NCBI GenBank assembly: GCA_021776735.1
Contig: JAJFFH010000008.1
Coordinates: 4,490-68,489 of the forward strand
Direction of reading: 5' to 3'
Source: Planctomycetota bacterium
Lineage (GTDB): Bacteria; Planctomycetota; PLA2
DNA: 64,000 bases
Below are positions 1,955 through 63,293 of the stretch, in pieces. Below the pieces are notes generated by a model. It searched no databases and had not been told where the DNA came from. It saw nothing but the letters and a program-made list of their open reading frames with translations. How positions within the stretch are numbered: position 1 is the first letter of the stretch; each line of letters starts with the position of its first letter. The translations under genes and the position numbers were made by a program.

Positions 1955-1971
1955 GCAAACGGACGGCGATG
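1955..1971 (-). repeat. ATCGCCGTCCGT motif copy (exact core 1959-1970, bottom strand)
   Basis: GCAAACGGACGGCGATG; 34 nt after the TPR gene stop and about 70 nt before ATG 2044. Confidence 0.9.
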
Positions 1972-2029
1972 CACTTGTCCAGTCGCATCGCCAGCGATCG
2001 AAAGTTATTTTTGTGGTCCGGAAATGTGG

Positions 2030-2035
2030 TATTCT
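2030..2035 (+). promoter_or_regulatory. -10-like hexamer TATTCT, 8 nt before ATG 2044 (leaderless-type)
   Basis: TAnnnT hexamer in a GC-rich context at the recurrent 6-9 nt distance from a start codon. Confidence 0.5.
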
Positions 2036-2043
2036 CGGAAGCG

Positions 2044-2238
2044 ATGGCAGAGAAGAAGCGATCGGGTCCGGGTCGTCCTGCCTTGACGGACTCCGACCGC
2101 AGGGACCGCTACTTGAAGATTCGGCTTAGAGACGACGAACTCACGGCGATCCAGACGGCGGCGGACGCGGGTGGCCGGACCGTCAGCCACTGGGGCCGCG
2201 AGGTGCTCCTGCGGGCAGCCAGGAGATCGAAGCTCTAA
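2044..2238 (+). CDS. ribbon-helix-helix (CopG/MobC/antitoxin-like) small DNA-binding protein
   Basis: 64 aa, MAEKKRSGPGRPALTDSDRRDRYLKIRLRDDELTAIQTAADAGGRTVSHWGREVLLRAARRSKL. The beta-strand then two-helix pattern is typical of RHH proteins. Start chosen from the TATTCT hexamer; an in-frame ATG at 1969 is an alternative. Confidence 0.65.
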   Translation: MAEKKRSGPGRPALTDSDRRDRYLKIRLRDDELTAIQTAADAGGRTVSHWGREVLLRAARRSKL

Positions 2239-2632
2239 TGGCTGGACGTAGCTGGTGAAACTCCCGATATCCAAGATCATGTGACTGCGGCGATCGACTA
2301 CATGAAGTTGGTCGCTGGCCCGATTGAGAGTTGTCAAGCAGGTCGACCGGTCGAAAGAGCTGGATTCGATCGTGTCAATGGTTCGGAACTCCCGGAGGTT
2401 ACCGGCAAGCCTCGCGGACGATCGCGTCTGTCAGAGCGCCGCCGACCTCATCATCTTCCTTGACTCTCTTTCCGTAAAGCGTGCGATCACCACGAACTCC
2501 CGTGAATGGGCTGCATTCGATGGAATCGCCGGTGTGCGTGTCATCACGTTCCGCAAGAACCCGCAACATTCGAATCCGGCCCCGTTCGAGGGCTGCAAGG
2601 ACGGGTAGTACTTCGCTTCCCCAGCGTCGCAT

Positions 2633-4135
2633 CTAACGTGGGACCCGGAGTTCCAGGATGCCCTCGTGGTCTGGCGTGACGCGCACGGTCTGGCGTGCGC
2701 CTACCGCGATGGGTTCGGGGCCGAGGTTCGGCAGGACCAGCGTGCCGTCGGCGCCGGTCAGGATCGGTACGTACTGCACGCCGTCGCGCAATAGCGCGTA
2801 CGGCATCTTCGTCGTCTCGTGTGTCACGGTTACCCGCAGGAACGGCAGGGGCTGGTCGTTTTCGTCGTCGCGGACGCGCAACTGTAGCGTCCACCCGGCC
2901 GGCTCGGTGAGTACCACCTCGCTTGTCTTGCCTGCGGTGACGGTCACTCGTGCGCGTGTGGGGACAAAGCCTGCGGCACCTGCATAGATCTCGTAGGTTC
3001 CGGGCTCCATCTTGCTCACGGTCGCAATGCCGCGCGCGTCGGTGTGGGCGAGTCCGGCGAACTCCCTTCCGGCTACCTGCACCCGCACACCGCGCGCGGG
3101 TGCGCCGTTGCTGCGCCGTACGGATGCGCGGATGGCGCCCGCGTTCTTGATGTCCGGACGATACCGGACCGTGATCGAGTTCTTCGGTGGCATCGTGAAG
3201 GGTTGTTCCGTTGCGTCTTCCTCCGGGTCGAGAAGCATCATGGCCGCCAGCGTCGTGATGCGGTGGTAGGCGATGTAGTGCTGCTTGTCCTTTCGCACGA
3301 CGACATACGCTTCCGTACCGGGAAGAAACGGCACGCCACGCACGCGCACAACGCCACGCCGGGCGCCCGTTTCGATTTCGTGCGCCAGCTTGTCGGGACC
3401 GCGCATCATTCCGATCTCGTGCAACGCGTAGCCGTGCGGCAGCTCGATGCGCCAGTCGAGTTCGCGGTACAGCGGTATCGTGGCGGTGACACGCCGCGCC
3501 TGCGACCCGATGAACTCGTCGAGCCGGTAGCGCAACCCGTCGCGTGTCGTCCAACCGGGCGTCTTGATGTGCACGGTCACCCGGTCATGTCCGCCGCGCC
3601 CGAAGGGAGAGTTCATGATCACGCCCTTCTCGGGCGCGAGGTCGCCGCCCAGTGTTCCGACGACCAGCTCGATGCCGTCGAGCCTCTTCCCGGTCACGCC
3701 ATCGACCGTGCGCAGCTCGAGCGGCAGCAACTTCGGAAACCGAATCACCGTCCGCGGCGCGGTGAGGATGCGTCCGTGCGGCTCGAACGGGCACGCCATC
3801 AGTCGCTGCCTGGCCTTCGCCGGCCCCGGCAACACGGCGCGGCCGGCGGCGTCGGTGGTGTAGTCCTTTTTCTCGGGATACCCGCGCACGGGAATCCCCT
3901 TGAGCGGTCGGTCCGCGGGCCCGAGCAGGATGACCTCCCAGCGCCTGGCAACGTCGGTTTTTTGGTTGGAAAGATCTTTCGGAGCGGCAGGAACGGACGG
4001 CGATGTCTTGGAAGAGGTCCCCTGCCCCCGTGCCCCCTCACCCCTCGAAGCGATGTGTTCGCTCCCTCCCCGCGACACGGCCCATAGTCCGAATCCGACC
4101 ACGAGCACAACGATAAGCACGATTGCGGCGCGCAT
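2633..4135 (-). CDS. membrane-anchored protein with carboxypeptidase-regulatory-like (CarboxypepD_reg) domain
   Basis: N-terminal TM MRAAIVLIVVLVVGFGLWAV. Segment GVRVQVAGREFAGLAHTDARGIATVSKMEPGTYEIYAGAAGFVPTRARVTVTAGKTSEV matches the carboxypeptidase regulatory-like fold signature. 500 aa ORF with coherent composition. Confidence 0.8.
   Translation of the reverse strand: MRAAIVLIVVLVVGFGLWAVSRGGSEHIASRGEGARGQGTSSKTSPSVPAAPKDLSNQKTDVARRWEVILLGPADRPLKGIPVRGYPEKKDYTTDAAGRAVLPGPAKARQRLMACPFEPHGRILTAPRTVIRFPKLLPLELRTVDGVTGKRLDGIELVVGTLGGDLAPEKGVIMNSPFGRGGHDRVTVHIKTPGWTTRDGLRYRLDEFIGSQARRVTATIPLYRELDWRIELPHGYALHEIGMMRGPDKLAHEIETGARRGVVRVRGVPFLPGTEAYVVVRKDKQHYIAYHRITTLAAMMLLDPEEDATEQPFTMPPKNSITVRYRPDIKNAGAIRASVRRSNGAPARGVRVQVAGREFAGLAHTDARGIATVSKMEPGTYEIYAGAAGFVPTRARVTVTAGKTSEVVLTEPAGWTLQLRVRDDENDQPLPFLRVTVTHETTKMPYALLRDGVQYVPILTGADGTLVLPNLGPEPIAVGARQTVRVTPDHEGILELRVPR
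3990..4007 (-). repeat. ATCGCCGTCCGT motif copy (exact core 3993-4004, bottom strand) inside CDS
   Basis: GGAACGGACGGCGATGTC. Sense orientation for gene 2633..4135, encoding ...KTSPSVP... in the low-complexity linker after the TM helix. Flanks resemble the copy at 52338. Confidence 0.9.
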
Positions 4136-4651: not shown

Positions 4652-6778
4652 ATGGGCAAGACGCGTACAAAGCCGAAATTCGACCATGCCGGGCTTTCCC
4701 GGGACGATCTGCTGCACCTGTTTCGCGTGATGTATGCGTCGCGCCGGACCGACGACAAAGAAATCGTCCTCAAGCGGCAGAACAAGGCGTTTTTCCAGAT
4801 CAACGGCTGCGGCCACGAGGCGATCTGCGCCGCCGCGGGATTCGCCGCGCGTCCCGGCTACGACTGGTTTTATACGTACTACCGCGACCGGGCGCTGGCG
4901 CTCGCCGTCGGCATGACGCCGTACGAGCAGCTCTTGCAGGCCGTCGGCTCGGTGGACGATCCTTCGTCCGCGGGTCGCCAGATGCCGTCCCATTGGGGCA
5001 AGCGCGAGTGCCGTCTTGCGTCCGCCTCGTCGCCGATCGCGACGCAGTACCTGAACGCGGTCGGGTGCGCCGAGGCCATCGCGAAGGCGCGCGATTTCAA
5101 AGACGTGCGTGATGCCCTGGAAGGTGATTTCTATCCCGACGAGGTGGTGCTTTGCACCGGCGGCGACGGGTCCACGAGCGAGGGCGAGTTCTGGGAGGCG
5201 TTGTCTTCGGCCTGCGTTCTCAAGCTTCCGGTCGTGTTCATCATCGAGGACAACGGCTACGCCATTTCGGTTCCGCGCGAGGTCCAGACTCCGCAGGACT
5301 CGATCAGCAGGGCCGTCGCCGGTTTTCGGCCGCTGCTGATGTTGGAAGGCGACGGTCTTGATCCCGTCGATTCGTATCGAATGATGCGCGAAGCGATCGA
5401 CCATGCGCGCGCGGGCAACGGTCCCGCGTTGGTCCACGCCCACTGCATCCGGCCGTACTCCCACTCGATGTCCGACGACCAGTCGCTCTATCGCACCAAG
5501 GACGACATCGCCGCGGAGTGGGAAAAAGACCCGATCGTTACGTTTCCAGCGCGGCTGATCGCCGAGGCCGTGGCGACGAAGGAGCAGATCGAGGCGCTCA
5601 AGGCCGAGGTCGATGCCGAGATCGAAGACGCTGCCGAGCGCGCGCTGCGGGCGCCGCTGCCGGAGAAGACGGCCGAGGCGGCCGAGCAGTGGGTCTTTTC
5701 GGAAGATATCGATCCGACGTCGGCGGATTTCGATACCGAGCCCGACCTCGAGGGCGATCCGCGCACCCTGATTGATCTGGTCAACCAGACGCTCGACCAC
5801 GAGATGGAGCGCGACGGCCGCGTCCTCGTGTTCGGCCAGGACGTCGCGGACGTGTCGCGCGAGAACCTCCTTGGCGAGGTCAAGGGCAAGGGCGGCGTCT
5901 TCAAGTCGACGCACGGGCTCCAGCGCAAGCACGGAAGCCATCGCTGCTACAACTCGCCGCTGGCGGAAGCCAACATCATGGGCCGCACCGTCGGGCTCGC
6001 GACGCGCGGCCTGAAGCCGGTGAGCGAGATCCAGTTCATCGACTACATCTGGCCCGCGTTCGAACAGATCCGAAACGAGTGGGCGGTCCTGCGCTGGCGC
6101 TCCGGCAACACCTGGAGCTGCGGCAGCGTCGTGCGCACGACGATCGGCGGCTATATTCGCGGCGCGCTCTGCCACAGCCAGTCCGCCGAATCGCTGTTCA
6201 CCCATATTCCCGGAATTCGCGTCGTGTTCCCGAGCAACGCGCTCGACGCCTGCGGCCTGCTGCGGACAGCGATTCGCTGCGACGACCCCGTGCTGTTTCT
6301 GGAACACAAGCACCTCTATCGCCAGACGTACAACCGTTCGCCCTACCCGGGCCGCGAGTTCATGATCCCGTTCGGGAAGGCGAAGACCGTTCGCGAAGGC
6401 GCCGACGTGGCCATCGTGACCTACGGCGCGCTTGTCGAACGCAGCCTGCGCGCGGCAAAAAAACTCGCGGAGGAGGACGGGATCGAGGCCGAGGTTCTCG
6501 ACTTGCGCACGATCCAGCCGTACGACTTCGAGGCGATCGCCGCGGCGGTCGAAAAAACGAACCGCGTCGTCGTCGCGTACGAGGACAACCGCTCGTGGGG
6601 CTGGGGCGCCGAGATCGCCGCACGCATCGCGGACGAACTCTTCTCGCACCTGGACGCGCCGGTGAAGCGCGTGGGTGCGCTCGACACCTTCGTGGCCTAC
6701 AGCCCCGATCTCGAGGACGTGATCCTGCCGCAGTCCGAAGACATCGCGGACGCCTGCCGCGCCGCCGCGCGGTTTTAG
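4652..6778 (+). CDS. 2-oxoacid (branched-chain/pyruvate-type) dehydrogenase E1 component, fused alpha and beta subunits
   Basis: 708 aa. The N-terminal half has the TPP-binding E1-alpha pattern ([27 protein letters not shown]). The C-terminal half has the E1-beta/transketolase-like pattern ([52 protein letters not shown]). Confidence 0.9.
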
Positions 6779-7073
6779 GCTCTGTTTGAAAAGTCGGCGC
6801 AAGGCCCGAGGGCGAGCGACGACAAGGCAGGCAAGGCACCGCCGCGCCGCAGGGCGCTATGGCGTCCCGAACGCGGGAGGGCTGACGAAGTCGTGCCAAC
6901 GGAGAGGCACCCTTCATCGAGGAAGCGCGACGCAGCCCTCCGCTCGCCTCCAACATCGTCAGATGTTGAGGCAAACAACACTGCCGCGTAGCGAAGCCGG
7001 GTCGTGAGCCGAAGGCGAGCGACCTGGCGCAGCCGCAGCCGGCCGAAGCCAGGCGACTTCCAAACAGAGCCTA
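6776..7073 (+). mobile_element. MITE-like non-autonomous element, copy 1 (298 bp)
   Basis: Terminal inverted repeats TAGGCTCTGTTTGAAAAGTCG ... CGACTTCCAAACAGAGCCTA. The interior aligns, in inverse orientation and with indels, with 61230..61441. No credible ORF. Its first three bases are the TAG stop of the E1 gene. Confidence 0.75.
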
Positions 7074-7097
7074 GGCCGAGCGGGCGGGTTCGCGGGC

Positions 7098-7116
7098 GAC
7101 ATCGCCGTCCGTTTGC
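7098..7116 (+). repeat. ATCGCCGTCCGT motif copy (exact core 7101-7112, top strand)
   Basis: GACATCGCCGTCCGTTTGC; 24 nt right of MITE copy 1 and 79 nt upstream of ATG 7196. Confidence 0.9.
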
Positions 7117-7183: not shown

Positions 7184-7189
7184 TACAAT
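7184..7189 (+). promoter_or_regulatory. -10-like hexamer TACAAT, 6 nt before ATG 7196; possible -35 TTGACC at 7159-7164
   Basis: TTGACC-19 nt-TACAAT-6 nt-ATG. The spacer is slightly long for a sigma-70 promoter. Confidence 0.5.
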
Positions 7190-8629: not shown

Positions 8630-8718
8630 TTTCGGGAGTCCGGCGCAAATCCGGACACAGCAAGGGCCTGCCGCGCCGTGGCCCTGACGGGCGAAGGCGG
8701 GACGGCGATGCCTTCGAT

Positions 8719-10731: not shown

Positions 10732-11568
10732 GTGCGCGACATCGCCGTCCGTTTGCTTTTTTTCGTGGGGTTTTTGCTCACGGGCTGTGGGTGCGATGCT
10801 CCGGAGCCGCGGTCCGGGCCGATTCGGCGGGTCGTGTGCCTGCTGCCTTCGTTTACCGAAACGATGAGCGCGCTCGGGGCCGCGCCGATGCTCGTCGGGT
10901 GCACGCGGTTTTGCAAGGCGGACGCGGATGTGGCGCGCGTGCCGTGGCAGGACGCGGCGGCGGTCGAGGCGATCCTGCGCACCGATCCCGATCTCGTGAT
11001 CAAGCAGCGGTCGCGGCGCGCGCATGATCCGCTCGCGGACGCGCTCGCGCGCGCCGGCGTGCGCGTGCTGACGTTGCCCAGCGAGACGATCGCCGACGTG
11101 CGTGCCGCGATTTCGAAGTTGGGTGACGTGTTGGGGCGGGAGGAGGCGGCGCGGCGTCTGCTGACCCGCTTCGACGCGCGCTTGAAGGCGGTGCAGGAGA
11201 AGTATCGGGACCGCACGCGGCCGCGGGTGCTGTTTGTGTTCGACCGCGACCCGCAGGCGATTGCCAACGTGCGGGCAGCGGGGCCGGGCAGTTTTCTCGA
11301 CGAGCTGATTCACGCGGCGGGCGGGGCCAACGCGCTCGCGGACGCCGGGCGCGCGTATGTGTCCGTCGATCTCGAACGGCTCCTGCGCCTTGAGGCGGAC
11401 GTGATCATCGACAGCGTCCCGCAGGCCACCGGCGGGCTCGAACCGTGGCGCGAACTCAAGCACCTGACGGCCCGGGTGCACGCGGTGCGCGACGCGACGC
11501 TGCTGGTGCCCGGTCCCCGGCTCCCCGACGCCATCGCCGAGCTCGCAGAGCTGCTCCACGGAGAGTAG
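10732..11568 (+). CDS. periplasmic substrate-binding lipoprotein of an iron-siderophore/cobalamin-type ABC transporter
   Basis: Lipoprotein signal MRDIAVRLLFFVGFLLTGC. RRVVCLLPSFTETMSALGAAPMLVGCT resembles BtuF/FecB-type binding proteins. An ATPase and a FecCD permease follow in the same orientation. Confidence 0.8.
   Translation: MRDIAVRLLFFVGFLLTGCGCDAPEPRSGPIRRVVCLLPSFTETMSALGAAPMLVGCTRFCKADADVARVPWQDAAAVEAILRTDPDLVIKQRSRRAHDPLADALARAGVRVLTLPSETIADVRAAISKLGDVLGREEAARRLLTRFDARLKAVQEKYRDRTRPRVLFVFDRDPQAIANVRAAGPGSFLDELIHAAGGANALADAGRAYVSVDLERLLRLEADVIIDSVPQATGGLEPWRELKHLTARVHAVRDATLLVPGPRLPDAIAELAELLHGE
10738..10756 (+). repeat. ATCGCCGTCCGT motif copy (exact core 10741-10752, top strand) inside codons 3-9 of CDS 10732
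   Basis: GACATCGCCGTCCGTTTGC followed by a T7 run; encodes DIAVRLL of the signal peptide. Confidence 0.9.
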
Positions 11569-12366: not shown

Positions 12367-12388
12367 GACCTCGCCGTCCGTCCTTTGC
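12367..12388 (+). repeat. ATCGCCGTCCGT motif, variant copy
   Basis: GACCTCGCCGTCCGTCCTTTGC (one core mismatch plus a 2-nt insertion); 8 nt after stop 12358, upstream of the ABC ATPase. Confidence 0.7.
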
Positions 12389-17710: not shown

Positions 17711-17728
17711 GCAAACGGACGGCGATAT
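17711..17728 (-). repeat. ATCGCCGTCCGT motif copy (exact core 17715-17726, bottom strand)
   Basis: GCAAACGGACGGCGATAT; sense orientation about 60 nt upstream of the minus-strand start at 17653. Confidence 0.9.
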
Positions 17729-19448: not shown

Positions 19449-19468
19449 GACATCGCCGTCCCGCCTGC
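19449..19468 (+). repeat. ATCGCCGTCCGT motif, variant copy
   Basis: GACATCGCCGTCCCGCCTGC; 92 nt upstream of ATG 19561. Confidence 0.65.
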
Positions 19469-22064: not shown

Positions 22065-22083
22065 AACATCGCCGTCCGTACGC
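22065..22083 (+). repeat. ATCGCCGTCCGT motif copy (exact core 22068-22079, top strand)
   Basis: AACATCGCCGTCCGTACGC; ends 10 nt before the TATCCT hexamer and 22 nt before ATG 22106. Confidence 0.9.
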
Positions 22084-22105: not shown

Positions 22106-22687
22106 ATGGCGAACATCGAGCTCGTGAACGACGACGATGCAACCGGGACGCTCCGCGCCTTCTACGACGCCGCGATCAGCCGCGCGGGGAGGGTCTACAA
22201 CATCGTGCGCACGATGAGCCCGAACCCCGCGGTGCTCGAGGCGTCGATGCGCCTTTATATGCAGGTCATGAAGGGGCCGTCCGGGCTGACGCGCCGCGAG
22301 CGCGAACTGATCGCAACGGTGACCAGCCGCACTAACGATTGCTACTACTGAACCCTCGCGCACGCGGACGACTTTCGCCAGTTGGGCGGAGACGACGAGG
22401 TGGCGCGGGGGCTGATCAACGAGGGAAGCCTACGGACGGCGATGCTTTCCGAGCGCGAGCGAGCGCTGTGCGGGTACGCCGAGAAACTCACGAAGACCCC
22501 GGCTGCGGTGGGGCCGACCGACCTCGACGCGCTGCGCACGCACGGTCTCACGGACCGCGATCTCCACGACGCCGTGCAGGTGATCAGCTACTTCAACTAC
22601 ATCAACCGTGTCGCGGACGCGCTGGGCACGGATTTGGAACCGGAGATGTCGGCGCGGCCGGCGGGGTGGGGGGACGGCTCGCGCTAG
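22106..22687 (+). CDS. AhpD-like / carboxymuconolactone-decarboxylase-family peroxidase-related protein, selenocysteine candidate (TGA 22349-22351)
   Basis: ORFs ending at 22351 and starting at 22382 share one frame. Read-through gives ...RERELIATVTSRTNDCYY-TGA-TLAHADDF...ERERALCGYAEKLTKTPAAV... The TGA occupies the second Cys of the family CxxC(L/T)xAH motif. Confidence 0.8.
22373..22391 (+). promoter_or_regulatory. candidate bacterial SECIS-like hairpin
   Basis: TTTCGCC-AGTTG-GGCGGAG: 7-bp stem including two G-U pairs. The apical loop contains GU and lies 29-33 nt after the UGA. Small, and not validated. Confidence 0.35.
22430..22446 (-). repeat. ATCGCCGTCCGT motif copy (exact core 22432-22443, bottom strand) inside the AhpD-like CDS
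   Basis: CTACGGACGGCGATGC, encoding ...LRTAML...; about 80 nt downstream of the TGA. Confidence 0.9.
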
Positions 22688-23019: not shown

Positions 23020-23037
23020 AAATCGCCGTCCGTAAGC
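23020..23037 (+). repeat. ATCGCCGTCCGT motif copy (exact core 23022-23033, top strand) inside the CHAT remnant
   Basis: AAATCGCCGTCCGTAAGC; antisense to the remnant, where it encodes LTDGD. Confidence 0.85.
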
Positions 23038-23229: not shown

Positions 23230-23248
23230 GACATCGCCGTTCGTTTGC
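23230..23248 (+). repeat. ATCGCCGTCCGT motif, variant copy
   Basis: GACATCGCCGTTCGTTTGC (one mismatch), in the non-coding filler between the TPR ORF and the CHAT remnant. A further partial copy GAGCATCGCCGTCCTG lies at 23129-23144. Confidence 0.75.
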
Positions 23249-24987: not shown

Positions 24988-25006
24988 GACATCGCCGTCC
25001 GTTTGC
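24988..25006 (+). repeat. ATCGCCGTCCGT motif copy (exact core 24991-25002, top strand)
   Basis: GACATCGCCGTCCGTTTGC; 9 nt beyond the annotated TPR start. It heads a degenerate copy of the AhpD-like leader and first codons. Confidence 0.9.
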
Positions 25007-25789: not shown

Positions 25790-25807
25790 GACACGCCGTC
25801 CGTATGC
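25790..25807 (+). repeat. ATCGCCGTCCGT motif, variant copy
   Basis: GACACGCCGTCCGTATGC (one base missing from the core); 43 nt upstream of ATG 25851. Confidence 0.65.
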
Positions 25808-29954: not shown

Positions 29955-29973
29955 GATATCGCCGTCCGTTTGC
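29955..29973 (+). repeat. ATCGCCGTCCGT motif copy (exact core 29958-29969, top strand)
   Basis: GATATCGCCGTCCGTTTGC followed by T6; 56 nt upstream of ATG 30030. Confidence 0.9.
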
Positions 29974-32299: not shown

Positions 32300-32318
32300 G
32301 ACATCGCCGTCCGTTTGC
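32300..32318 (+). repeat. ATCGCCGTCCGT motif copy (exact core 32303-32314, top strand)
   Basis: GACATCGCCGTCCGTTTGC; 8 nt after stop 32291 and 44 nt before GTG 32363. Confidence 0.9.
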
Positions 32319-33610: not shown

Positions 33611-33645
33611 GCCCAACCCGGAGGCAGCGTACGGACGGCGATGCC
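33513..33645 (+). repeat. direct repeat copy 1 (3' end of gene 32363..33610 plus motif)
   Basis: About 90 percent identical by eye to 36020..36146, with one 6-nt and one 1-nt indel. The two copies bracket the LRR gene. Confidence 0.85.
33627..33645 (-). repeat. ATCGCCGTCCGT motif copy (exact core 33631-33642, bottom strand)
   Basis: GCGTACGGACGGCGATGCC; 16 nt after stop 33610 and 11 nt before the LRR gene stop. Confidence 0.9.
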
Positions 33646-36019: not shown

Positions 36020-36146
36020 CCGCTACGCAACGGCGAGGTCTTGGAGGCGCTGCAGGACGCCATCCGCCGTTTCGACGAGATCTGGGACGGACTCTACGGC
36101 CCGACGCGTAGGTCAATCCCGGAGGCAGCGTACGGACGGCGATAGC
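36020..36146 (+). repeat. direct repeat copy 2 (degenerate duplicate of the 3' end of gene 32363..33610 plus motif)
   Basis: Encodes ...RNGEVLEALQDAIRRFDEIWDGLY, compared with ...RNGEVLEALPLPDAIRRADEIWDGLYDPDA in the intact gene. A 1-nt deletion destroys the original stop context. Confidence 0.85.
36128..36146 (-). repeat. ATCGCCGTCCGT motif copy (exact core 36132-36143, bottom strand)
   Basis: GCGTACGGACGGCGATAGC at the end of direct repeat copy 2; 59 nt before the TIR gene stop. Confidence 0.9.
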
Positions 36147-38887: not shown

Positions 38888-38906
38888 TACATCGCCGTCG
38901 GTTTGC
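38888..38906 (+). repeat. ATCGCCGTCCGT motif, variant copy
   Basis: TACATCGCCGTCGGTTTGC (one mismatch); 63 nt upstream of ATG 38970. Confidence 0.75.
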
Positions 38907-48791: not shown

Positions 48792-48810
48792 GACATCGCC
48801 GTCCGTCTGC
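48792..48810 (+). repeat. ATCGCCGTCCGT motif copy (exact core 48795-48806, top strand)
   Basis: GACATCGCCGTCCGTCTGC; 4 nt after stop 48787 and 72 nt before ATG 48883. Confidence 0.9.
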
Positions 48811-52337: not shown

Positions 52338-52356
52338 GGAACGGACGGCGATGTTC
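52338..52356 (-). repeat. ATCGCCGTCCGT motif copy (exact core 52341-52352, bottom strand)
   Basis: GGAACGGACGGCGATGTTC, between the convergent stops 52319 and 52364. Flanks resemble the copy at 3990. Confidence 0.9.
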
Positions 52357-53862: not shown

Positions 53863-53881
53863 GAAATCGCCGTCCGTAGGC
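53863..53881 (+). repeat. ATCGCCGTCCGT motif copy (exact core 53866-53877, top strand)
   Basis: GAAATCGCCGTCCGTAGGC followed by T6, between the divergent starts 53806 and 53989. Confidence 0.9.
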
Positions 53882-55591: not shown

Positions 55592-56503
55592 ATGACCGGA
55601 GGCAGAATTCTCGTGGTTGTCCTGGTGGCCGGAGGTGCCGGCTTCGGTGGGGGGATGCTTGCGCAGGCGTTGCGCTCGGCCCCCCAAGCCGCGCGCGCCG
55701 ATGCGCAGCCGGGCGAACGTACGCTCGCGCCCCGCGCGGACGGTGTCGCCCGCGAGCGGATCGATACCCTTGCGCGACGGCTCGACGGGCGGCTCGACGA
55801 ACTCGAGAAGCGGTCGTCCGTCGGACGAGTGTCTGATGGGGCCGGTGGCGCCGATGTCGGAGGGCAGCAGACGGACGGCGATGCACCCGGTGGCAGGGCG
55901 GACCTGGCGAATCGCTCGGCGCCCGGACCGGTGGCGGACCTTGTTACCGAACTCGCGAGCCGGCCTTACACCCATCGGCGCTCGGAGCGGCTGTTCGGCC
56001 ACTTGGCGCGCAAGCATGGCGAGATCGCCTCGACAATCGCGCGACTCAAGAAGGCGCTAGCAAAGGATCCGGACAACCCGCATCTGCACGCAGCGCTCGG
56101 CACGGCGCTCACCGCCAAGACCGCGTTTGCGACCGCGCCGGGGCCGGAACAGGGCACGGTCTGGCGCGAGGCCGAGAAGTCGTTCCAAAAGGCGATCGAG
56201 CTCAAGCCCGACCACTGGGAGGCGCGGTACAGCCTGGCGTTCGGCGACAGTATGGCGCCCGAGTTTGTCGGCCTGCGGCCGCGCGCCATCAAGCGCTTCG
56301 AGGCACTGATCGAGCTGCAGGAACAGCAGGCCCACGCCGATGATCACGCCCTTGCGTACATGCGGCTCGGCACCTTGTACAAGGACGCGGGCAACGCAAG
56401 AAAGGCGCGCGCGGTCTGGGATCGCGGTCGCCAGCGGCACCCGAAGAGCGAGCCGCTCGGGCAAGCGCTCAAACTGATCGGAAAGGCCGACAACGATGAC
56501 TGA
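55592..56503 (+). CDS. membrane-anchored TPR-like protein
   Basis: ATG 55592 with GAAGGAG upstream. TM GRILVVVLVAGGAGFGGGML, a low-complexity linker, then TPR-like helices (AEKSFQKAIELKPDHWEARYSLAF; ALAYMRLGTLYKDAGNARKARAVWDRG). Confidence 0.7.
   Translation: MTGGRILVVVLVAGGAGFGGGMLAQALRSAPQAARADAQPGERTLAPRADGVARERIDTLARRLDGRLDELEKRSSVGRVSDGAGGADVGGQQTDGDAPGGRADLANRSAPGPVADLVTELASRPYTHRRSERLFGHLARKHGEIASTIARLKKALAKDPDNPHLHAALGTALTAKTAFATAPGPEQGTVWREAEKSFQKAIELKPDHWEARYSLAFGDSMAPEFVGLRPRAIKRFEALIELQEQQAHADDHALAYMRLGTLYKDAGNARKARAVWDRGRQRHPKSEPLGQALKLIGKADNDD
55867..55886 (-). repeat. ATCGCCGTCCGT motif copy (exact core 55871-55882, bottom strand) inside CDS
   Basis: GCAGACGGACGGCGATGCAC; antisense to gene 55592..56503, encoding ...QQTDGDAP... 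in its low-complexity linker. Confidence 0.9.
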
Positions 56504-57496: not shown

Positions 57497-57515
57497 GCAA
57501 ACGGACGGCGATGTG
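57497..57515 (-). repeat. ATCGCCGTCCGT motif copy (exact core 57501-57512, bottom strand)
   Basis: GCAAACGGACGGCGATGTG; 37 nt after stop 57459, at the left edge of the composite repeat locus. Confidence 0.9.
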
Positions 57516-57976: not shown

Positions 57977-58384
57977 TCAACCCGGCGTTCGCGAACGCTG
58001 ACTCTGGATGAGCCGCGTCAACATCGCGCCGACCCGGTTCGTGTATGAGAGCAGCTCGTCGGACGTGTCCTGCGAGATGACCTTGACGATCGTGGCCAGC
58101 TCGAGAGCCGCGGCACCCTCGAGGCACTCCGCCTGCGCGATGGTGTAGCGGTAAGCCTTGTCCGCCGGCTTCCAGCGCCCCGCACCCTCGGCGATATTGA
58201 GAACCGTGGCCGTAGCGCAACGCCGCAACTGGTCCTTGATCGCTCCGTAACCACGCGGGAACGAAGCAGCCGATTCTTCGACGCCAGCAAACAGCAAGAT
58301 CGCGACCCGATAGACATCAAGCCGTTGGTGAGGTGCCAGGGACGATGCCCGGGAGGCCGCGGAGAAGTTTCGGTTGTCGGTCAT
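57977..58384 (-). CDS. four-helix-bundle protein (23S rRNA intervening-sequence protein / Avd-like family)
   Basis: 135 aa. [77 protein letters not shown] matches the TIGR02436-type pattern. AAGGAG Shine-Dalgarno. Confidence 0.85.
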
Positions 58385-58404
58385 GGAAGACTCCTTTCAA
58401 CGGG

Positions 58405-58449
58405 GAGCGCCTATCGCCCCACGCAAGTGGATAGGGGCGATGGGCGCTC
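58405..58449. promoter_or_regulatory. 16-bp-stem palindrome in the 5' region of four-helix-bundle gene A
   Basis: GAGCGCCTATCGCCCC-13 nt-GGGGCGATGGGCGCTC (one mismatch). The arm plus loop CCACTTGCGTGGGGCGAT(A/T)GGCGC recurs upstream of gene B (58758-58783). Confidence 0.55.
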
Positions 58450-58510
58450 TCCCGACAGTAGCCCCCGGCAACCGATCCGCCCGCGAGTCCGACGGCCAAG
58501 CGACCGAACC

Positions 58511-58602
58511 CGTTCGCGTTCACGAACGACGTTCACGTTCACGTAGTGCTTGCTGGATACGCGGGAGTCGATCATTCGAACAACCCGCGACGTAGACGCG
58601 AC
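58511..58602 (+). repeat. 86-nt repeat unit U3 (with a 6-nt internal duplication)
   Basis: CGTTCGCGTTCACGAACGACGTTCACGTTCACGTAGTGCTTGCTGGATACGCGGGAGTCGATCATTCGAACAACCCGCGACGTAGACGCGAC. Confidence 0.9.
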
Positions 58603-58810
58603 CCGACCCCGACCCCGACCCCCGACCCCGAACCCGAATGACGTTCGCGTTCACGTAGCGCTTGCTGACTCGAACGACGGCGGGACGATCAACGCACCCT
58701 GCGCGGGCGCTCTAATTCGGGTGGGCGACCTGGGGGGAGGGGGCCTAGCGCCCCCTTCCACTTGCGTGGGGCGATTGGCGCCCCCCGTCGCAACCCTGGA
58801 GGAACTCCAA

Positions 58811-59194
58811 GTGAACCATTCTCTTTCACCGTTCGCTCACGAAAGGCTCGATGTCTATCGTGTCGCGCTGCGGCTGTTTTCCGATGTTGAAGAGGTTGTG
58901 AATCTGGCGCCCGCCGGACACGGCGATCTCCTCAGACAACTTCGGCGCTGTGCTGCGTCGACGGTGCTCAACATCGGAGAGTGTGCGAACCGCGGGCACC
59001 ACAAGGACAAGGCATCTCGCTTCATCATTGCTCGCGGCGAATGCGGCGAGTGTGCGTGTGCGTTGGATCTTCTGCACGTCTGCGGGCTGGCGTCCGCCGC
59101 CAGGGTCGCGTCGCTCAAGAACACCGCTCGCAGAGTTGCGGCGATGCTCACCGGGCTCATCCGCCGCGAACGGCGGTTGGCGGAGTCGGGCTGA
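58811..59194 (+). CDS. four-helix-bundle protein (23S rRNA intervening-sequence protein / Avd-like family), paralogue
   Basis: GTG 58811 with GGAGGA upstream. [77 protein letters not shown]. Confidence 0.85.
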   Translation: MNHSLSPFAHERLDVYRVALRLFSDVEEVVNLAPAGHGDLLRQLRRCAASTVLNIGECANRGHHKDKASRFIIARGECGECACALDLLHVCGLASAARVASLKNTARRVAAMLTGLIRRERRLAESG

Positions 59195-59229
59195 TCCGAC
59201 CCGGTCGCCGTCGCGCCGTGCCCCCCAAC

Positions 59230-59315
59230 CGTTCTCGTTCTCGAACGACGTTCACGTAGCGCCTGCCAAATACGCGGATGTCGGCCATTCGAACAATCCG
59301 CGAGGTAGTCGCGAC
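59230..59315 (+). repeat. 86-nt repeat unit U5
   Basis: CGTTCTCGTTCTCGAACGACGTTCACGTAGCGCCTGCCAAATACGCGGATGTCGGCCATTCGAACAATCCGCGAGGTAGTCGCGAC. Confidence 0.9.
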
Positions 59316-59364
59316 CCGACCCCGAACCCCGAGCCCGAACCCATCCCGAATCCGATCCCGAACC

Positions 59365-59450
59365 CGTTCTCGTTCTCGAACGACGTTCACGTAGCGCCTG
59401 CCAAACACGCGGGAGTCGACCATTCGAACCACCCGCGACATGACCGCGAC
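59365..59450 (+). repeat. 86-nt repeat unit U6
   Basis: CGTTCTCGTTCTCGAACGACGTTCACGTAGCGCCTGCCAAACACGCGGGAGTCGACCATTCGAACCACCCGCGACATGACCGCGAC. Confidence 0.9.
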
Positions 59451-59495
59451 CCGAACCCGAACCCGAACCCAAATCCGATCCCGAAACGCCCCGAC

Positions 59496-60383
59496 CTACT
59501 CGAAAACCTCGCCGATCTCTCGCACCACCGGGTGCTGTCCGTCCCAGACCATCGCCCGCGCCTCGGTCAACACGCACGCCGACAGCGTGGTTCCGAGGAC
59601 CGCGGCCAACGACAACGTCGGCCATCGCAGCGGCTCGAATCCGTACGCGGCGGCGGTCACCAGCGCCTGGAGTACGAGCACGAGCGCGAGGCAGCCAAGG
59701 ACGGCGATGCTGGTTCCCCGCGACGGCCGGGCGCGGGACTCGAGAGCCCCCTTGAGGGTCATACCGTCCACGGCGATCAGTGGCAGAATCAGCCAGGAAC
59801 GCGTCCCCACCCAAACGACGAACACATACCAGCCCACGGCGGCGACCCCGACGCCGGCCTCGCCGAGAGTGTCCAGGAAGAGTCCGGAAAACAGTCCGGC
59901 AACACCGAAGAACAGGGCACCGGCCATGGAGTAAAACCAGATCGCGAGCAGCCCCAGCAGGGCGACGCGCACCGTCGATGACGGCGGCAGGCTGAACCGG
60001 AAGAACTGACGCCGAGTCTCTGCGGCGTGCAATCCGGCGGCCAGTACGGCGGTTGCCACAGACCATGCCGCCGGACTGGCGATCAAGATCAGAAGTATCA
60101 CGCCGGACGGTCCGCTTGGCCGATCCCCAAACATCTCGGCGAACGTCACCCAGACGCCAGCCGGAAAGTGGATGTAGCCCGCGAGAAGCGACGCCCCCGC
60201 GCGCGGATCGACACGGACAAGCCAGGGAGCAGCGAGCACAGGTGCACAGACCACGAGCCCCACGAGGTGCAGCGGCACGAAATGGCGTCGCCATCGCATG
60301 AGCGAGCGCCGCCGAAGGGTTGAGAAAAACTCTTCCCCCCCGCGCCCCCCCAACTCGATCTCGTCCGGATTCGCCATCGTCAA
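59496..60383 (-). CDS. integral membrane protein (about 7 TM)
   Basis: 295-aa ORF with repeated hydrophobic segments. ATG 60377 is an alternative start. No family recognised. Confidence 0.65.
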   Translation of the reverse strand: MTMANPDEIELGGRGGEEFFSTLRRRSLMRWRRHFVPLHLVGLVVCAPVLAAPWLVRVDPRAGASLLAGYIHFPAGVWVTFAEMFGDRPSGPSGVILLILIASPAAWSVATAVLAAGLHAAETRRQFFRFSLPPSSTVRVALLGLLAIWFYSMAGALFFGVAGLFSGLFLDTLGEAGVGVAAVGWYVFVVWVGTRSWLILPLIAVDGMTLKGALESRARPSRGTSIAVLGCLALVLVLQALVTAAAYGFEPLRWPTLSLAAVLGTTLSACVLTEARAMVWDGQHPVVREIGEVFE

Positions 60384-60400: not shown

Positions 60401-61225
60401 GTGATCCTCGACGGCGGATTGGCGACTGAACTCGAGGCGCGCGGGCATGACCTCTCCGACGCGCTCTGGTCCGCGCGCCTTTTGCGCGAGCGGCCGGACG
60501 AGGTGTTGGCGGTGCACCGCTCGTTCGTGAACGCGGGCGCGGAGTGCGTCACGACGGCGAGCTACCAGGCGCACACGGACAACCTCGGCGCGGGCGCAAG
60601 CGCGCTCCTGCTCCGGTCCGTGGAGCTGGCGCGCGCGTCCGGAGCAAGAAAGGTTGCCGCCAGCGTCGGTCCCTACGGTGCGGTGCGGGCCGACGGCTCG
60701 GAGTACTGCGGCGACGACGGCCTTACCGTGGCCGAACTGCGGGACTGGCACGAGGAGCGCTTGCGCGTGCTGGACGGCGCGGGCGCCGATCTTCTCGCGT
60801 GCGAAACGCTGCCGTCGCTGCGCGAAGCACGCGCCCTGGCGCGACTGCTCGATCAAACGCCGGCATGGTTCAGTTTTTCGTGCCGCGACGATGAACACGT
60901 GAGCGACGGCACGCCGCTGGCCGAGTGCGCCGCCGCGCTGGCTGAGTATCCGCAGATCGTGGCCTTGGGCGTGAACTGCGTGCCGCCGCGCCTCGTGGCA
61001 GCGCTCCTCGCTCGTCTCAAGACCGACAAGAAACGTGTTGCCTATCCGAACTCGGGCGAGAACTGGGACGCGGGCTCCCGCCTCTGGACCGGCGAAAGAA
61101 ACGCCGGGGACTTCGCCAAGATGGCCGCAGCGTGGCCCGCGGACTGGATCGGCGGCTGCTGCCGGGTGCGCCCGCAACACATTCGCGCCCTGAGCGAGGG
61201 CACCGACATCGCCGTCCGTACCTGA
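60401..61225 (+). CDS. mmuM: homocysteine S-methyltransferase
   Basis: VILDGGLATELEARGHDLSDALWSARLLRERPDEVLAVHRSFVNAGAECVTTASYQA, and a C-terminal zinc-ligand context IGGCCRVRPQHIRAL. Confidence 0.85.
   Translation: MILDGGLATELEARGHDLSDALWSARLLRERPDEVLAVHRSFVNAGAECVTTASYQAHTDNLGAGASALLLRSVELARASGARKVAASVGPYGAVRADGSEYCGDDGLTVAELRDWHEERLRVLDGAGADLLACETLPSLREARALARLLDQTPAWFSFSCRDDEHVSDGTPLAECAAALAEYPQIVALGVNCVPPRLVAALLARLKTDKKRVAYPNSGENWDAGSRLWTGERNAGDFAKMAAAWPADWIGGCCRVRPQHIRALSEGTDIAVRT
61205..61222 (+). repeat. ATCGCCGTCCGT motif copy (exact core 61208-61219, top strand) forming the last codons of mmuM
   Basis: GACATCGCCGTCCGTACC encodes the C-terminal tail ...DIAVRT before TGA 61223-61225; 7 nt left of MITE copy 2. 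Confidence 0.9.
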
Positions 61226-61229
61226 CGTC

Positions 61230-61441
61230 TAGGCTCTGTTTGAAGAGTCGCCTGGCTTCGGCCGGCTGCGGCTGCGCCTGGTCGCTCGCCTGCGGCTCAC
61301 GACCCGGTTTCGCGCGGCGAAACCGGGCTGCGTCGCGCTTCCTCGATGTGCCTCTCGGTTGGCACGACTTCGTCAGCGCTCCTTGCCTGACTTGTCCTCG
61401 CTCGCCCTCGGGCCTTACGCCGACTCTTCAAACAGAGCCTA
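61230..61441 (-). mobile_element. MITE-like non-autonomous element, copy 2 (212 bp, inverted relative to copy 1)
   Basis: Perfect 21-nt TIRs TAGGCTCTGTTTGAAGAGTCG. Flanked by direct CGTC (61226-61229 and 61442-61445). Removing the element and one CGTC restores the perfect palindrome CCTGACGTCAGG, which contains both convergent stop codons. Confidence 0.8.
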
Positions 61442-61443
61442 CG

Positions 61444-62214
61444 TCAGGCAGGCCACGAGAGGTTCGCGAGCGAATTCAGCACGAGGTCGGGCGTAACCGT
61501 ACCGTTCAGGTCGCCCGGCTGGAACTTGCCCGTCTTCACGAGGGCGCCCTTGAGGCCCGCGCGTTGCGCACCGCCCACGTCGGAGTTGATGTCGTCGCCG
61601 ATCATGAGCACCTGCGCGGGCTCGAGGCCGAGCCGATCGACCGCCGCGTGGAAAAATCCGCCTGCCGGCTTGCCGAGGACGACGGCCTTGCGGCCCGTGG
61701 CGTGCTCAAGCGCGACCACGAACGGCGCGACGTCGAGCGAAACGCCCTCGGGCGCCATCCAGTACCGAGTCATGCCGAGCGCGACCAGCACCGCCTCGGG
61801 GTCGGCGTGCAGATAGCGAAACGCCTTGTTGAGTACCTCATAGGTCCACTCGCTACCGAGATCCCCGACGACGACGTACCGTGCGTTTTCCCGTGCGCGT
61901 TCGATCCCCTGGAATTCGATGCGCGCCGCCGTGCGCAGAAACAGCGCCGCGGGCCCGGGCGGTTGCGCGCGAAGCCACGCCGCCGCAGCGACCGCGGGCG
62001 TCAGAACATGCTCGGCGGAGGTCTCGATCCCAAACATCTGGAGCTTGCCGACGAGCGCTGCGCGCGGTCGCGAGGTCGTGTTCGTGACGAATAGATGCGG
62101 CACCCTGCGTTTCTGAAGCGCCCGCACGGCCGCAGCCGCGCCAGCAACAGGCTCCTCGCCGTGGTACACCACGCCATCGAGGTCGAAGAGGACGCCGCGC
62201 AGATCAGGATTCAC
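61444..62214 (-). CDS. HAD-superfamily subfamily IIA hydrolase
   Basis: Motif I VLFDLDGVVYHG, FVTNTTSR, and motif IV MIGDDINSDVGGAQRAGLKGALVKTG. Confidence 0.85.
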   Translation of the reverse strand: MNPDLRGVLFDLDGVVYHGEEPVAGAAAAVRALQKRRVPHLFVTNTTSRPRAALVGKLQMFGIETSAEHVLTPAVAAAAWLRAQPPGPAALFLRTAARIEFQGIERARENARYVVVGDLGSEWTYEVLNKAFRYLHADPEAVLVALGMTRYWMAPEGVSLDVAPFVVALEHATGRKAVVLGKPAGGFFHAAVDRLGLEPAQVLMIGDDINSDVGGAQRAGLKGALVKTGKFQPGDLNGTVTPDLVLNSLANLSWPA

Positions 62215-63293
62215 TTCAAGGACAACGACCGCGAGGAAAACGCCAAGCCGTCCGGCTCACGCCCGGTCTCATACCGGGCGATCACCTTGAACGTCTTCAG
62301 GTCGATCACGGCGAGCCGATCGTAGCCGCCGTTAGCGACGAAAGCGTGCCGTCCATCCGGTGCCAGCACGATCCCGATCGGCATGGGCCCGCGCCGCCGG
62401 CCAAACATCGTGCCCCGATCGCCCTTCTCCAGCTCCTCGACGCGCATCGTGACGCGCTTGATCACTTTGCGCGCGGCCACGTCGAGCACCGCGACATCGG
62501 CGGAGAGCGCGCACGACACGAGCGCGTGCTTGCCATCCGCGGCCATCGCAATGCGAATCGGAAAGCGGGGACAGGGAATCTGCGCGACAACCTTGAGCTT
62601 CGTGGCGTCCACAACACTGATGGTGTCGGCCGCCCTGTTGGTGACCCAAATCTCGGCCCCACAGGGACGGACGGCGATGCCTTCGGCGCCGCGGCCGGTC
62701 GGCACCTGCTTGATTACCTCGCCCTTTTCCAGATCGATCGCCGTCATCGAATGCGACATGATGTTGGCCACGTAGGCGCGCTTGCCTTTCGGCCCGAGCG
62801 CGACCATGTGGCTGAGCCGAGCGCCGGTATCGACGGCCTTTTCCACCTTGCCCGATTTGACGTCTACCACGAGCAGCGCCCGGCTCGCCTCGGCGGTCAC
62901 GACCACGCGTGCGCCATCGGGCAAAAACGCAATGCCGTGCGGCCGCCGGTAGTCGCCGAGCTCGATCGTGCTGGTCTTTTGGAACTTGACGATGTCGTAG
63001 ACCGTGAGGGTTCGCCCGGCCTGCCCGCGCACGCCGTAGTTGCACGCGACCGCCGTCTTGCCGTCCGGCGACACCGCGATCTCGTGCGGGCCGGCGTCCG
63101 TCGGCAGCGTCTTCAGCGGCAGCCCGCTCGTCCGGTCCAGGATCGACAGCGTGTTGCCGCTCTTGTTGAGGATCAAGACGACGCCCCCGCCCCCCCTCTT
63201 TGCTTTTTTTTCTTGGGCCCCGACTTCCCCCTCCGCCCGACCGAGGCCGGCCAGAAGGACCAAGAACAGAACGGCCCGCACGCACGCGTCCAT
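62211..63293 (-). CDS. secreted YVTN-family beta-propeller repeat protein
   Basis: Signal MDACVRAVLFLVLLAGLG. Repeated blades have P-x-G/E-I-A-x-x-P-D-G-K (PHEIAVSPDGKTAVACN, PHGIAFLPDGARVVVT, AEGIAVRPCGAEIWVTN, PIGIVLAPDGRHAFVAN). Confidence 0.85.
   Translation of the reverse strand: MDACVRAVLFLVLLAGLGRAEGEVGAQEKKAKRGGGGVVLILNKSGNTLSILDRTSGLPLKTLPTDAGPHEIAVSPDGKTAVACNYGVRGQAGRTLTVYDIVKFQKTSTIELGDYRRPHGIAFLPDGARVVVTAEASRALLVVDVKSGKVEKAVDTGARLSHMVALGPKGKRAYVANIMSHSMTAIDLEKGEVIKQVPTGRGAEGIAVRPCGAEIWVTNRAADTISVVDATKLKVVAQIPCPRFPIRIAMAADGKHALVSCALSADVAVLDVAARKVIKRVTMRVEELEKGDRGTMFGRRRGPMPIGIVLAPDGRHAFVANGGYDRLAVIDLKTFKVIARYETGREPDGLAFSSRSLSLK
62664..62681 (-). repeat. ATCGCCGTCCGT motif copy (exact core 62667-62678, bottom strand) inside the YVTN CDS
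   Basis: Encodes GIAVRP of one propeller blade. It may be codon-driven convergence, although CGT is a rare Arg codon here. Confidence 0.6.

Follow-up and report, generated by a model that had tools for sequence, protein, structure and literature searches.

Sequence-specific DNA uptake tags have, to our knowledge, been described in two proteobacterial families only: the DNA uptake sequence (DUS) of the Neisseriaceae, a 12-mer (ATGCCGTCTGAA), and the uptake signal sequence (USS) of the Pasteurellaceae, with the core AAGTGCGGT. Neisseriaceae DUS reportedly come in dialects, in all of which a CTG triplet is kept; the extended USS consensus has a T-rich flank; and both kinds of tag carry an excess of information that ordinary transcription-factor sites do not. 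Here we describe a non-palindromic 12-mer, ATCGCCGTCCGT, that recurs throughout a 64,000-nucleotide stretch (hereafter, the window) of the genome of a planctomycete (Planctomycetota bacterium, PLA2; GenBank assembly GCA_021776735.1, contig JAJFFH010000008.1, positions 4,490 to 68,489; coordinates below count from the first letter of the window). We favor, with a probability of roughly 0.35, the reading that this motif is a lineage-specific genomic signature word that acts at the DNA level and accumulates by molecular drive via sequence-preferring DNA uptake.

Other short, abundant sites offer further points of comparison. The stoperators of cluster A mycobacteriophages are asymmetric repressor sites of 13–17 bp that occur about once per 2–3 kb in short intergenic regions, oriented with transcription, and Chi and KOPS (FtsK-orienting polar sequences) are 5–8-mers co-oriented with replication. 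Repetitive extragenic palindromic (REP) sequences are defined by a stem-loop with an unpaired tag, GTAG or CGTC (PMC3733652). Among uptake sequences, 34.5% of the DUS of N. meningitidis lie in open reading frames (ORFs), and uptake sequences fall at residues that are little conserved and alter the frequencies of peptides (PMC2817400). Within reading frames one orientation is favored (PMC2346458), and about half of all DUS and USS fall in predicted terminators just after genes (bioRxiv 10.1101/2025.10.24.684340).

Results

A recurrent 12-mer on both strands of the window

The exact 12-mer occurs 20 times in the window, ten times on each strand, or once per 3.2 kb, where dinucleotide shuffles predict 0.05 copies and Markov models of order 1 to 4 predict 0.04–0.07. 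An earlier reading made from the letters alone (the sequence-only reading) had placed all 20 at the coordinates and on the strands where we find them. The five variants it named also exist; its coordinates for these took in the three-nucleotide GAC flank, and the cores begin at 12370, 19452, 23233, 25792 and 38891. A sixth variant lies at 8698 on the bottom strand. When sites are sorted by mismatches to ATCGCCGTCCGT, we count 20 exact copies, 8 with one mismatch, 19 with two and 97 with three, compared with 0.02, 1.3, 17.9 and 144 expected from a simulated order-2 Markov model; exact copies thus predominate in the family, 20 to 8 over those with a single mismatch.

A position matrix built from 22 non-coding-type copies upholds the extended consensus proposed earlier, including its T run: GAC, then ATCGCCGTCCGT, then (T/A)(T/C)GCT, followed by a pyrimidine- and T-rich stretch. 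The most typical form is GAC-ATCGCCGTCCGT-TTGCT, often with a run of T next to it. Conserved positions amount to about 27 bits, and a site present at 20 copies per 2 × 64 kb needs 12.6 bits, so the motif is roughly twice as informative as a binding site of such frequency has to be. Both strands are used equally, and copies on the two strands are interleaved along the window without relation to GC skew.

We mapped the genes of the window from codon bias, raw ORF lists being useless at such a G+C content (66%). On this map 14 of the 20 exact copies fall in the 12.4% of the window scored as non-coding, a density about 16-fold higher than in coding DNA (binomial p ~4 × 10−9), and the enrichment at gene boundaries reported previously therefore stands. 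The same map corrects the claim that the motif is absent from gene interiors: six exact copies (3993, 10741, 22432, 55871, 61208 and 62667) lie within coding sequence (CDS), where 0.04 are expected. These occupy four different frames or orientations, namely sense I-A-V-R codons (10741, 61208 and 62667), sense T-S-P-S-V codons (3993), antisense T-D-G-D codons (55871, and also 23022 in a CHAT gene fragment) and antisense L-R-T-A-M codons (22432), and the protein positions hit include the n-region of a signal peptide, a linker and a C-terminal tail. We also considered the motif as a coding unit (I-A-V-R) and rejected this, as most copies run into stop codons or out of frame with the next gene.

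Conservation, dialects and origin of the motif in relatives

The core of the motif, ATCGCCGTCC, occurs 27 times in the window and at similar density in two close relatives, with six copies in 10 kb of L112 (JGI sample 3300023283; E1 protein 87% identical) and four in 7.9 kb of L128 (JGI sample 3300022719; DUF3754 protein 77% identical), or ten in 18 kb. Five more distant relatives (L113, L115, L130, L131 and L132; each located by its E1, TlpA-like or DUF3754 protein, at 62–81% identity) have essentially none, with a single copy of ATCGCCGTCC in 64 kb together. The motif is restricted to a narrow clade. We looked in the distant relatives for some other abundant intergenic word and found none; the over-represented words of L132 belong to a 110-nt tandem repeat of about seven units inside a gene (15900–16700).

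Wider searches were also negative. Scanning a genome collection with the 14-mer ACATCGCCGTCCGT gave only single chance matches in 110 unrelated genomes, and a metagenome scan with a 19-mer gave one match (L117), probably by chance. A viral scan with an 18-mer returned ten matches, one copy per contig, which we set aside as irrelevant, nine of them being the same conserved region of related low-G+C phage contigs. That region of about 120 nt holds ACATCGCCGTCCGTTTGC in nine IMG/VR contigs (L118–L121 and L123–L127), and lies about 50 nt from the contig end in three of them. It bears no relation to the planctomycete motif and could be a conserved feature close to the end of the phage genome. A full-text literature search for the word in either strand brought up primers and other unrelated sequences only, and in searches on planctomycete motifs, promoters and uptake sequences we found no account of this or a comparable planctomycete motif.

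The flanks of the core differ between lineages in a consistent manner. Window copies take the form GAC-core-GTTTGCT, and those of L112 and L128 the form GRAAGC-ATCGCCGTCC-CGAGC, also at orthologous sites. Three exact copies in the window are syntenic with copies in L112, 3993(−) with 60(−), 7101(+) with 2897(+) and 10741(+) with 6468(+), and the 8698(−) variant corresponds to a degenerate L112 copy. Because the intergenic DNA around syntenic copies has diverged beyond recognition, the core is maintained about as strongly as −10 hexamers, which are kept in the orthologous promoters of relatives (for example, CCGCTACAATG and TACACT). The copy at 10741 is absent from the L113 ortholog; at the 8698 site, the degenerate L112 copy also begins 9 nt past the stop codon, and L113 has ATCGCCG 5 nt past the stop.

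Four ortholog comparisons (Peripla_BP, NTP_transf_3, FecCD and DUF3754) bear on how copies within genes arise. The Peripla_BP signal peptide that holds the copy at 10741 is VRDIAVRLL in the window and MEGIAVRTL in L112; L113, which lacks the motif, has VRRALVL, and there is no sign of insertion. In NTP_transf_3 the window has GAAGAGATCGCCGTTTCG and L112 has GAAAGCATCGCCGTCCTG, which matches the dialect of L112 at the cost of an E-to-S change. At the FecCD N-terminus, L112 carries a full antisense copy in its own dialect (GGGACGGCGATGCTTTTC) where the window has GGGGCGGCGGTGCTCTTT; the difference consists of A-to-T and V-to-M changes plus a synonymous CTC-to-CTT change against the G+C (GC3) bias. 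In DUF3754, RDGDA of L128 stands opposite RNGEV of the window. These comparisons show that CDS copies arose in place via point substitution, with some of the changes altering amino acids; a membrane segment is among the protein positions affected. Such in-place substitution in orthologs means that the word is not a piece of a transposed element and makes transposition unlikely as its main source. It also rules out a possibility that the sequence-only reading had left standing, that every copy belongs to a larger mobile repeat.

Concerted flank changes and a well-kept core could also point to an abundant sequence-specific protein, a global regulator or nucleoid-organizing factor, that binds the motif and co-evolves with it. 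The site is asymmetric, 17–20 bp long and intergenic; its core at syntenic positions is conserved as strongly as −10 hexamers while its surroundings have diverged; and its flanks change across the genome as if one trans-acting factor read them all. Against such a protein, and more specifically against the global-regulator operator proposed earlier, the genes next to the copies have unrelated functions, copies lie anywhere between about −97 and +10 relative to promoters without clear helical phasing (our own calculation), the sites are near-perfect 12–19-mers in which exact copies dominate, carrying ~27 bits where 12.6 would suffice, and genic copies occur on both strands, some of them mid-gene. 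We consider this explanation unlikely, and the operator version of it weak.

Position of the copies relative to genes and promoters

Of the 36 gaps that measure 25 nt or more, about 20 hold a copy with up to two mismatches, almost always a single one. The sequence-only reading had described genes bracketed by inverted pairs of the motif; with about one copy per intergenic region in either orientation, such bracketing looks incidental.

Between co-directional genes, all six copies in the window (7101, 12370, 17715, 32303, 36132 and 48795) read in the sense direction, as does one independent co-directional copy in L128 (two-sided p ~0.02 if all seven are independent). The copy at 36132 is a duplicate of that at 33631, so the six are not all independent. 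The first, 7101..7112 (+), lies between an E1 dehydrogenase gene and a gene for a 477-aa protein; its L112 counterpart at 2897(+) keeps the core while the flanks have diverged, and its distance from the E1 stop codon is about 24 nt if an inserted repeat at 6776–7075 (described below) is discounted. The variant CTCGCCGTCCGT at 12370..12381 (+) begins 11 nt past the stop of an ankyrin gene; 17715..17726 (−) is 61 nt 5' of the start at 17653 and is followed by a T run; 32303..32314 (+) comes 11 nt after one gene ends (stop at 32291) and 48 nt ahead of the next (start at 32363); and for 48795..48806 (+) the two distances are 7 nt (stop at 48787) and 76 nt (start at 48883). The remaining copy, 36132..36143 (−), lies upstream of a leucine-rich repeat (LRR) gene.

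Six copies (8698, 12370, 32303, 33631, 48795 and 52341) begin 7–14 nt past a same-sense stop codon, and an L112 copy begins 23 nt past one. Among those not yet described, the variant ATCGCCGTCCcg at 8698..8709 (−) is 9 nt past the stop of an M20 peptidase gene (−), and two copies lie in convergent gaps, 33631..33642 (−) at 14 nt past the stop of the LRR gene (−) and 52341..52352 (−) at 11 nt past the stop of a TlpA-like gene (−). Two further non-coding copies follow top-strand genes from the bottom strand, 1959..1970 (−) at 37 nt past the stop of the gene at 1277–1921, to which it is antisense, and 57501..57512 (−) at 41 nt past the stop of the gene at 57154–57459.

We folded all 20 exact copies with 60 nt on each side and found no shared hairpin, and nothing in the window matches Rfam at gathering score; tRNA genes are also absent from it. 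A small hairpin subfamily does occur among the variants at 8698, 12370 and 19452, in which CGCCGT of the motif pairs with a downstream degenerate ACGGCG to give a GC-rich hairpin followed by a T-rich tract. This subfamily looks like a terminator built of the motif and a degenerate inverted copy, and its likeness to inverted DUS and USS in terminators speaks for an uptake-type tag. Canonical terminators at gene ends were not found in the 20 kb scanned. We also examined a GAC...GTC mini-hairpin within the extended motif and rejected it, since it amounts to only about three base pairs in most copies.

Divergent gaps, which have no gene upstream, hold eight or nine copies. The variant ATCGCCGTCCcg at 19452..19463 (+) is followed by CCGTTTGCTGTC; 24991..25002 (+) is 14 nt 5' of the TATCGT hexamer belonging to an uncalled gene (start 25031); 29958..29969 (+) sits between both promoters, 60 nt 5' of a sigma-factor fusion gene, with T6 next to it; the variant ATCGCCGTCgGT at 38891..38902 (+) is 5' of the start at 38970; and 53866..53877 (+) is again followed by T6. 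Close to promoters we also find 22068..22079 (+), which is 14 nt 5' of the TATCCT hexamer of an AhpD-like gene (start 22106) and overlaps the −35 position, and the variant CACGCCGTCCGT at 25792..25803 (+), 32 nt 5' of the TAGAAT hexamer of a kinase gene (start 25851). The distance from motif to −10 hexamer varies, as noted previously, in our measurements from 14 to more than 70 nt, and the copy at 10741 is downstream of its hexamer. Comparison with consensus sequences led us to reject a sigma-54 or extracytoplasmic function (ECF) sigma promoter, there being no GG at −24 and no conserved upstream −35 element, with TTGC in only about half of the copies.

TAnnnT hexamers stand 5–9 nt 5' of many start codons in the window (for example, 7185–7190, 10719–10724, 22094–22099 and 25836–25841) and recur in L112 (2934–2939) and L113 (TACACT at ~16152–16158, read by eye). 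With start codons so close behind, many mRNAs are probably leaderless, which suggests that leaderless mRNAs are common in this lineage. The motif is usually upstream of the promoter and outside the transcript. Divergent-gap copies between both promoters, such as 29958 and 53866, are probably not transcribed, which argues for action on DNA.

Within genes, 3993..4004 (−) lies in sense in the CDS at 2633–4135(−), in a low-complexity linker after an N-terminal membrane anchor. The copy at 10741..10752 (+) covers codons 4–7 (D-I-A-V-R) in the lipoprotein signal peptide of a Peripla_BP_2 gene, 3' of the TACACT −10 hexamer. Those at 22432..22443 (−) in the AhpD-like CDS, 23022..23033 (+) in the CHAT-domain gene fragment and 55871..55882 (−) in a tetratricopeptide repeat (TPR) gene are antisense. 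In sense, 61208..61219 (+) forms the last codons (D-I-A-V-R-T-stop) of a homocysteine S-methyltransferase gene, and 62667..62678 (−) is mid-gene (G-I-A-V-R-P) in a YncE-like beta-propeller CDS.

These placements bring in the main rival to an uptake-like tag, that the motif is an orientation-dependent transcription-unit boundary element, read either by a roadblock protein on DNA or by a termination factor on nascent untranslated RNA with its U-rich tract. Such an element would stop read-through from upstream and insulate the next, often leaderless, promoter. It would account for the sense orientation of all six co-directional copies in the window and the one in L128, for the six copies just past same-sense stops and the L112 case, for the position of the motif between a stop codon and a downstream TAnnnT promoter at about one copy per intergenic region, and for the T runs that follow many copies despite the 66% G+C of the window; the terminator-like look of the hairpin subfamily and the lack of canonical terminators at gene ends in the scanned 20 kb fit as well. 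Set against this, divergent-gap copies have nothing upstream to terminate, one exact sense copy stands at +10 of the Peripla_BP operon (10741) and another in mid-gene (62667), 16 of the 36 gaps have no motif, and no common hairpin exists. Genic copies, moreover, stand in both orientations and were made in relatives by amino-acid-changing substitutions, for which a terminator model gives no reason. On balance we judge a boundary element rather unlikely. Were the motif to mark borders, it would show how a high-G+C genome with apparently leaderless mRNAs separates its genes without canonical terminators of the kind sought in the 20 kb scanned.

A more specific version places a dedicated protein on an asymmetric 17–20-bp site at most transcription-unit borders, where, like TTF-I/Reb1 or CTCF at their sites, it would block or insulate transcription in one direction only and co-evolve with its site to give the two dialects. 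This would, as far as we know, be the first genome-wide system of such a kind in bacteria, and we hold it to be decidedly unlikely.

The sense bias and the nearness to stop codons also bear on an RNA-level explanation, in which AUCGCCGUCCGU in 3' or 5' untranslated regions would be recognized by a small RNA, an RNA-binding protein or an RNase; exact conservation over at least 12 nt is typical of base-pairing recognition. Start codons 5–9 nt after TAnnnT hexamers point instead to leaderless mRNAs, so that copies 5' of promoters would go untranscribed, and divergent-gap and antisense genic copies would not be in sense RNA at all. With no Rfam match and no common fold in addition, we find an RNA target highly improbable.

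Shared flanks, repeats and mobile elements

Some copies share more than the motif. The copies at 22068 and 24991 have 38 nt in common (starting at 22063 and 24986); the variant ATCGCCGTtCGT at 23233..23244 (+), which is non-coding, shares 43 nt (starting at 23226, 86% identity) with the element at 32296–32338; and about 56 nt are common to the three hairpin variants. A direct duplication of about 125 nt (33520–33642 and 36020–36143) comprises the 3' end of a DUF3754 gene plus the motif and brackets the gene for a 769-aa LRR protein (33657–35966, −); the copies at 33631 and 36132 belong to its two blocks, which cease to be identical exactly at the motif's 5' A. L128 has no LRR gene next to DUF3754, and the duplication could be a scar of insertion or recombination.

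Two copies of a miniature inverted-repeat transposable element (MITE) are present in the window, at 6776–7075 (300 nt) and 61230–61443 (214 nt). Each is bounded by terminal inverted repeats of 21 nt (TAGGCTCTGTTTGAAGAGTCG) and has TA on its flanks, which we take to be a feature of IS630/Tc1-type elements. The first overlaps the stop codon of the E1 dehydrogenase gene, and the syntenic intergenic region of L112 has no MITE; the second lies 10 nt downstream of the copy at 61208. A nearby 68-nt inverted repeat (6991–7058 and 61246–61313) had seemed a possible partner of the motif, and we rejected the tie because the repeat is part of this TA-inserting MITE.

In a FecCD-type ABC transporter operon of the window and of L112, an ankyrin-repeat gene (11588–12358, +; 7308–8117 in L112) separates the gene for the substrate-binding protein from that for the ATPase. 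The L113 counterparts of these two genes directly overlap each other, which makes the ankyrin gene a lineage-specific insertion into the operon.

Observations of this kind speak for a motif that serves as a site of recombination or insertion, or that forms the conserved head of some small repeat able to move or duplicate (for example, a REP-like sequence, a MITE end or a cassette boundary): the duplication around the LRR gene ends exactly at the motif, subfamilies share 38–56 nt of flank, and the ankyrin gene missing from the L113 operon has the motif at its 3' boundary in the window. Most synteny differences among the window, L112 and L113, however, are not at motif copies, and the copies in conserved genes arose by substitution, with no inserted segment at the orthologous coding sites. 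The unit is only 12–22 nt long, unlike a MITE or other transposed repeat, and shows no terminal inverted repeats, target duplications or shared stem-loop; no phage, transposase, integrase or REP-associated tyrosine transposase (RAYT) gene was found in the window; and the two real MITEs insert at TA and are unrelated to the motif. We regard this explanation as very unlikely. The cassette boundary put forward in the sequence-only reading finds one case, the duplication at the LRR gene, and is contradicted by the substitution-born copies.

Other features of the window

Window proteins match best those of metagenome-derived genomes labeled Planctomycetota bacterium, and the same organism is present in the Logan assembly of run SRR15505515, whose contigs overlap the window. 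Genes in the window code for fusions of Ser/Thr kinases with FGE-sulfatase domains, an ECF-sigma fusion, LRR, TPR and PEP-CTERM proteins, ABC transporters and metabolic enzymes.

The AhpD-like gene (22106–22687, +), of the AhpD/CMD-family "peroxidase-related enzyme" type, has an in-frame TGA (22349–22351) at the second Cys of CxxCxxxH (C-Y-Y-TGA-T-L-A-H). The read-through protein matches TIGR01926 over its full length at 157 bits (cut-off 81.8) and, below cut-off, an AhpD-related (seleno)protein model. On this evidence the product is probably a selenoprotein, whose gene would be split in two by gene callers. Downstream, at 22761–23075 (−), an isolated C-terminal CHAT-domain gene fragment follows an in-frame stop and is likely a remnant; it lies in a 1.5-kb stretch with three exact and three variant copies of the motif.

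Genes for an MntA-like nucleotidyltransferase (Pfam Polbeta) and a HepT-like RNase are adjacent at 18601–19417 (−), overlap by about 14 nt and form a probable toxin-antitoxin pair. A (CGGGTT)n array at 37231–37396 lies inside a TIR-domain gene, where it probably encodes Pro-Glu repeats. Inverse (ACCCGA)n arrays at 57670–59516, set within dispersed 135–155-nt repeats in a poorly coding 2-kb stretch, have long inverted matches with it.

Discussion

Of the three candidates that the sequence-only reading had offered, an operator, a cassette boundary and an uptake-like tag, the last fits best: the two strands are used equally, copies within genes occupy several frames and arise in place by point substitution, flanks form dialects, and the information carried exceeds what the frequency of the site demands. 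We infer the uptake step, and with it the selective agent, wholly from the over-representation, intergenic enrichment, in-place origin, core maintenance and dialects described above. In such a scheme, the transformation machinery would include a DNA receptor with a preference for double-stranded fragments carrying GAC-ATCGCCGTCCGT-TTGCT, and fragments with match-improving mutations would be taken up and recombined more often. The word would then build up by molecular drive wherever selection tolerates it, mostly between genes and otherwise in weakly constrained codons, and its flanks would co-evolve with the receptor to yield dialects.

Several observations weigh against an uptake-like tag. 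We found no competence or pilus genes in the 64-kb window, which comes from the metagenome-assembled genome of an uncultured organism, and we know of no description of natural transformation in Planctomycetota. Copies are about three times less dense than DUS and USS and no more evenly spaced than random (coefficient of variation 0.88), and the window holds no full inverted pair of the motif within 300 nt. A pure uptake model does not predict the sense bias in co-directional gaps, nor the T runs or the post-stop position beyond what fitting between stop and promoter entails. Finally, several non-coding copies share 38–125 nt of flank, so for some copies the route of spread was local duplication or gene conversion and not point mutation.

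An uptake-type tag in a planctomycete would suggest that self-preferring transformation, or some other genome-wide self-marking, evolved independently in a distant phylum. The motif would in that case serve as a simple sequence marker for binning this clade and tracking it in metagenomes, and would point to a receptor or binding protein that could be found by comparing genomes with and without it.

The pattern resembles several described systems in part. Like the motif, REP sequences and bacterial interspersed mosaic elements (BIMEs), GTAG- or CGTC-tagged and including the REPIN-RAYT systems, are abundant, intergenic and placed after gene ends, and the motif even contains CGTC; unlike them, it has no shared palindrome and has genic copies born of substitution, and no RAYT gene accompanies it in the window. 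Stoperators are likewise asymmetric, near-identical, of similar density, located in short intergenic regions and oriented with transcription. The window, however, carries housekeeping chromosomal genes and no phage genes, and the motif stands on both strands within genes and is conserved between species at syntenic sites. Chi and KOPS are over-represented, evolve in place and are read by DNA-processing machines, but the motif is a 12–19-mer with ten copies per strand, no strand bias and no relation to GC skew. HIP1 (GCGATCGC) of cyanobacteria is also lineage-specific, hyper-abundant, both coding and non-coding and of no mobile-element origin; it is a palindromic 8-mer, whereas the motif is asymmetric, longer and much more intergenic. 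Reb1 and TTF-I sites of RNA polymerase I units, and CTCF sites, are long and asymmetric and stand in one orientation after genes or before the next promoter; these are eukaryotic, the likeness would be functional only, and we know of no bacterial counterpart of such polar-site systems. Integron attC sites and cassettes do not correspond to the motif, which lacks a conserved structure and accompanies housekeeping genes in mixed orientations with no integrase.

DUS and USS come closest. They too are short and non-palindromic, over-represented hundreds-fold and found on both strands; they are enriched just after genes and also lie in ORFs, in particular frames and at weakly conserved residues; and they share with the motif an origin by point mutation, lineage dialects around a conserved inner core, excess information and an extended consensus with a T-rich flank. 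The differences are that the motif belongs to another phylum and a high-G+C genome, is sparser, shows a sense bias between co-directional genes and has some longer shared flanks. Full inverted pairs, frequent among DUS and USS as terminator hairpins, do not occur; only three copies pair with a degenerate partial one. The resemblance to the neisserial GCCGTC core, moreover, does not extend to the CTG triplet. In our comparison the pattern nevertheless fits DUS and USS better than an operator, REP, MITE, Chi or attC. What would be new here is uptake-signal-type behavior in a new phylum, without full inverted pairs and with an orientation possibly linked to transcription.

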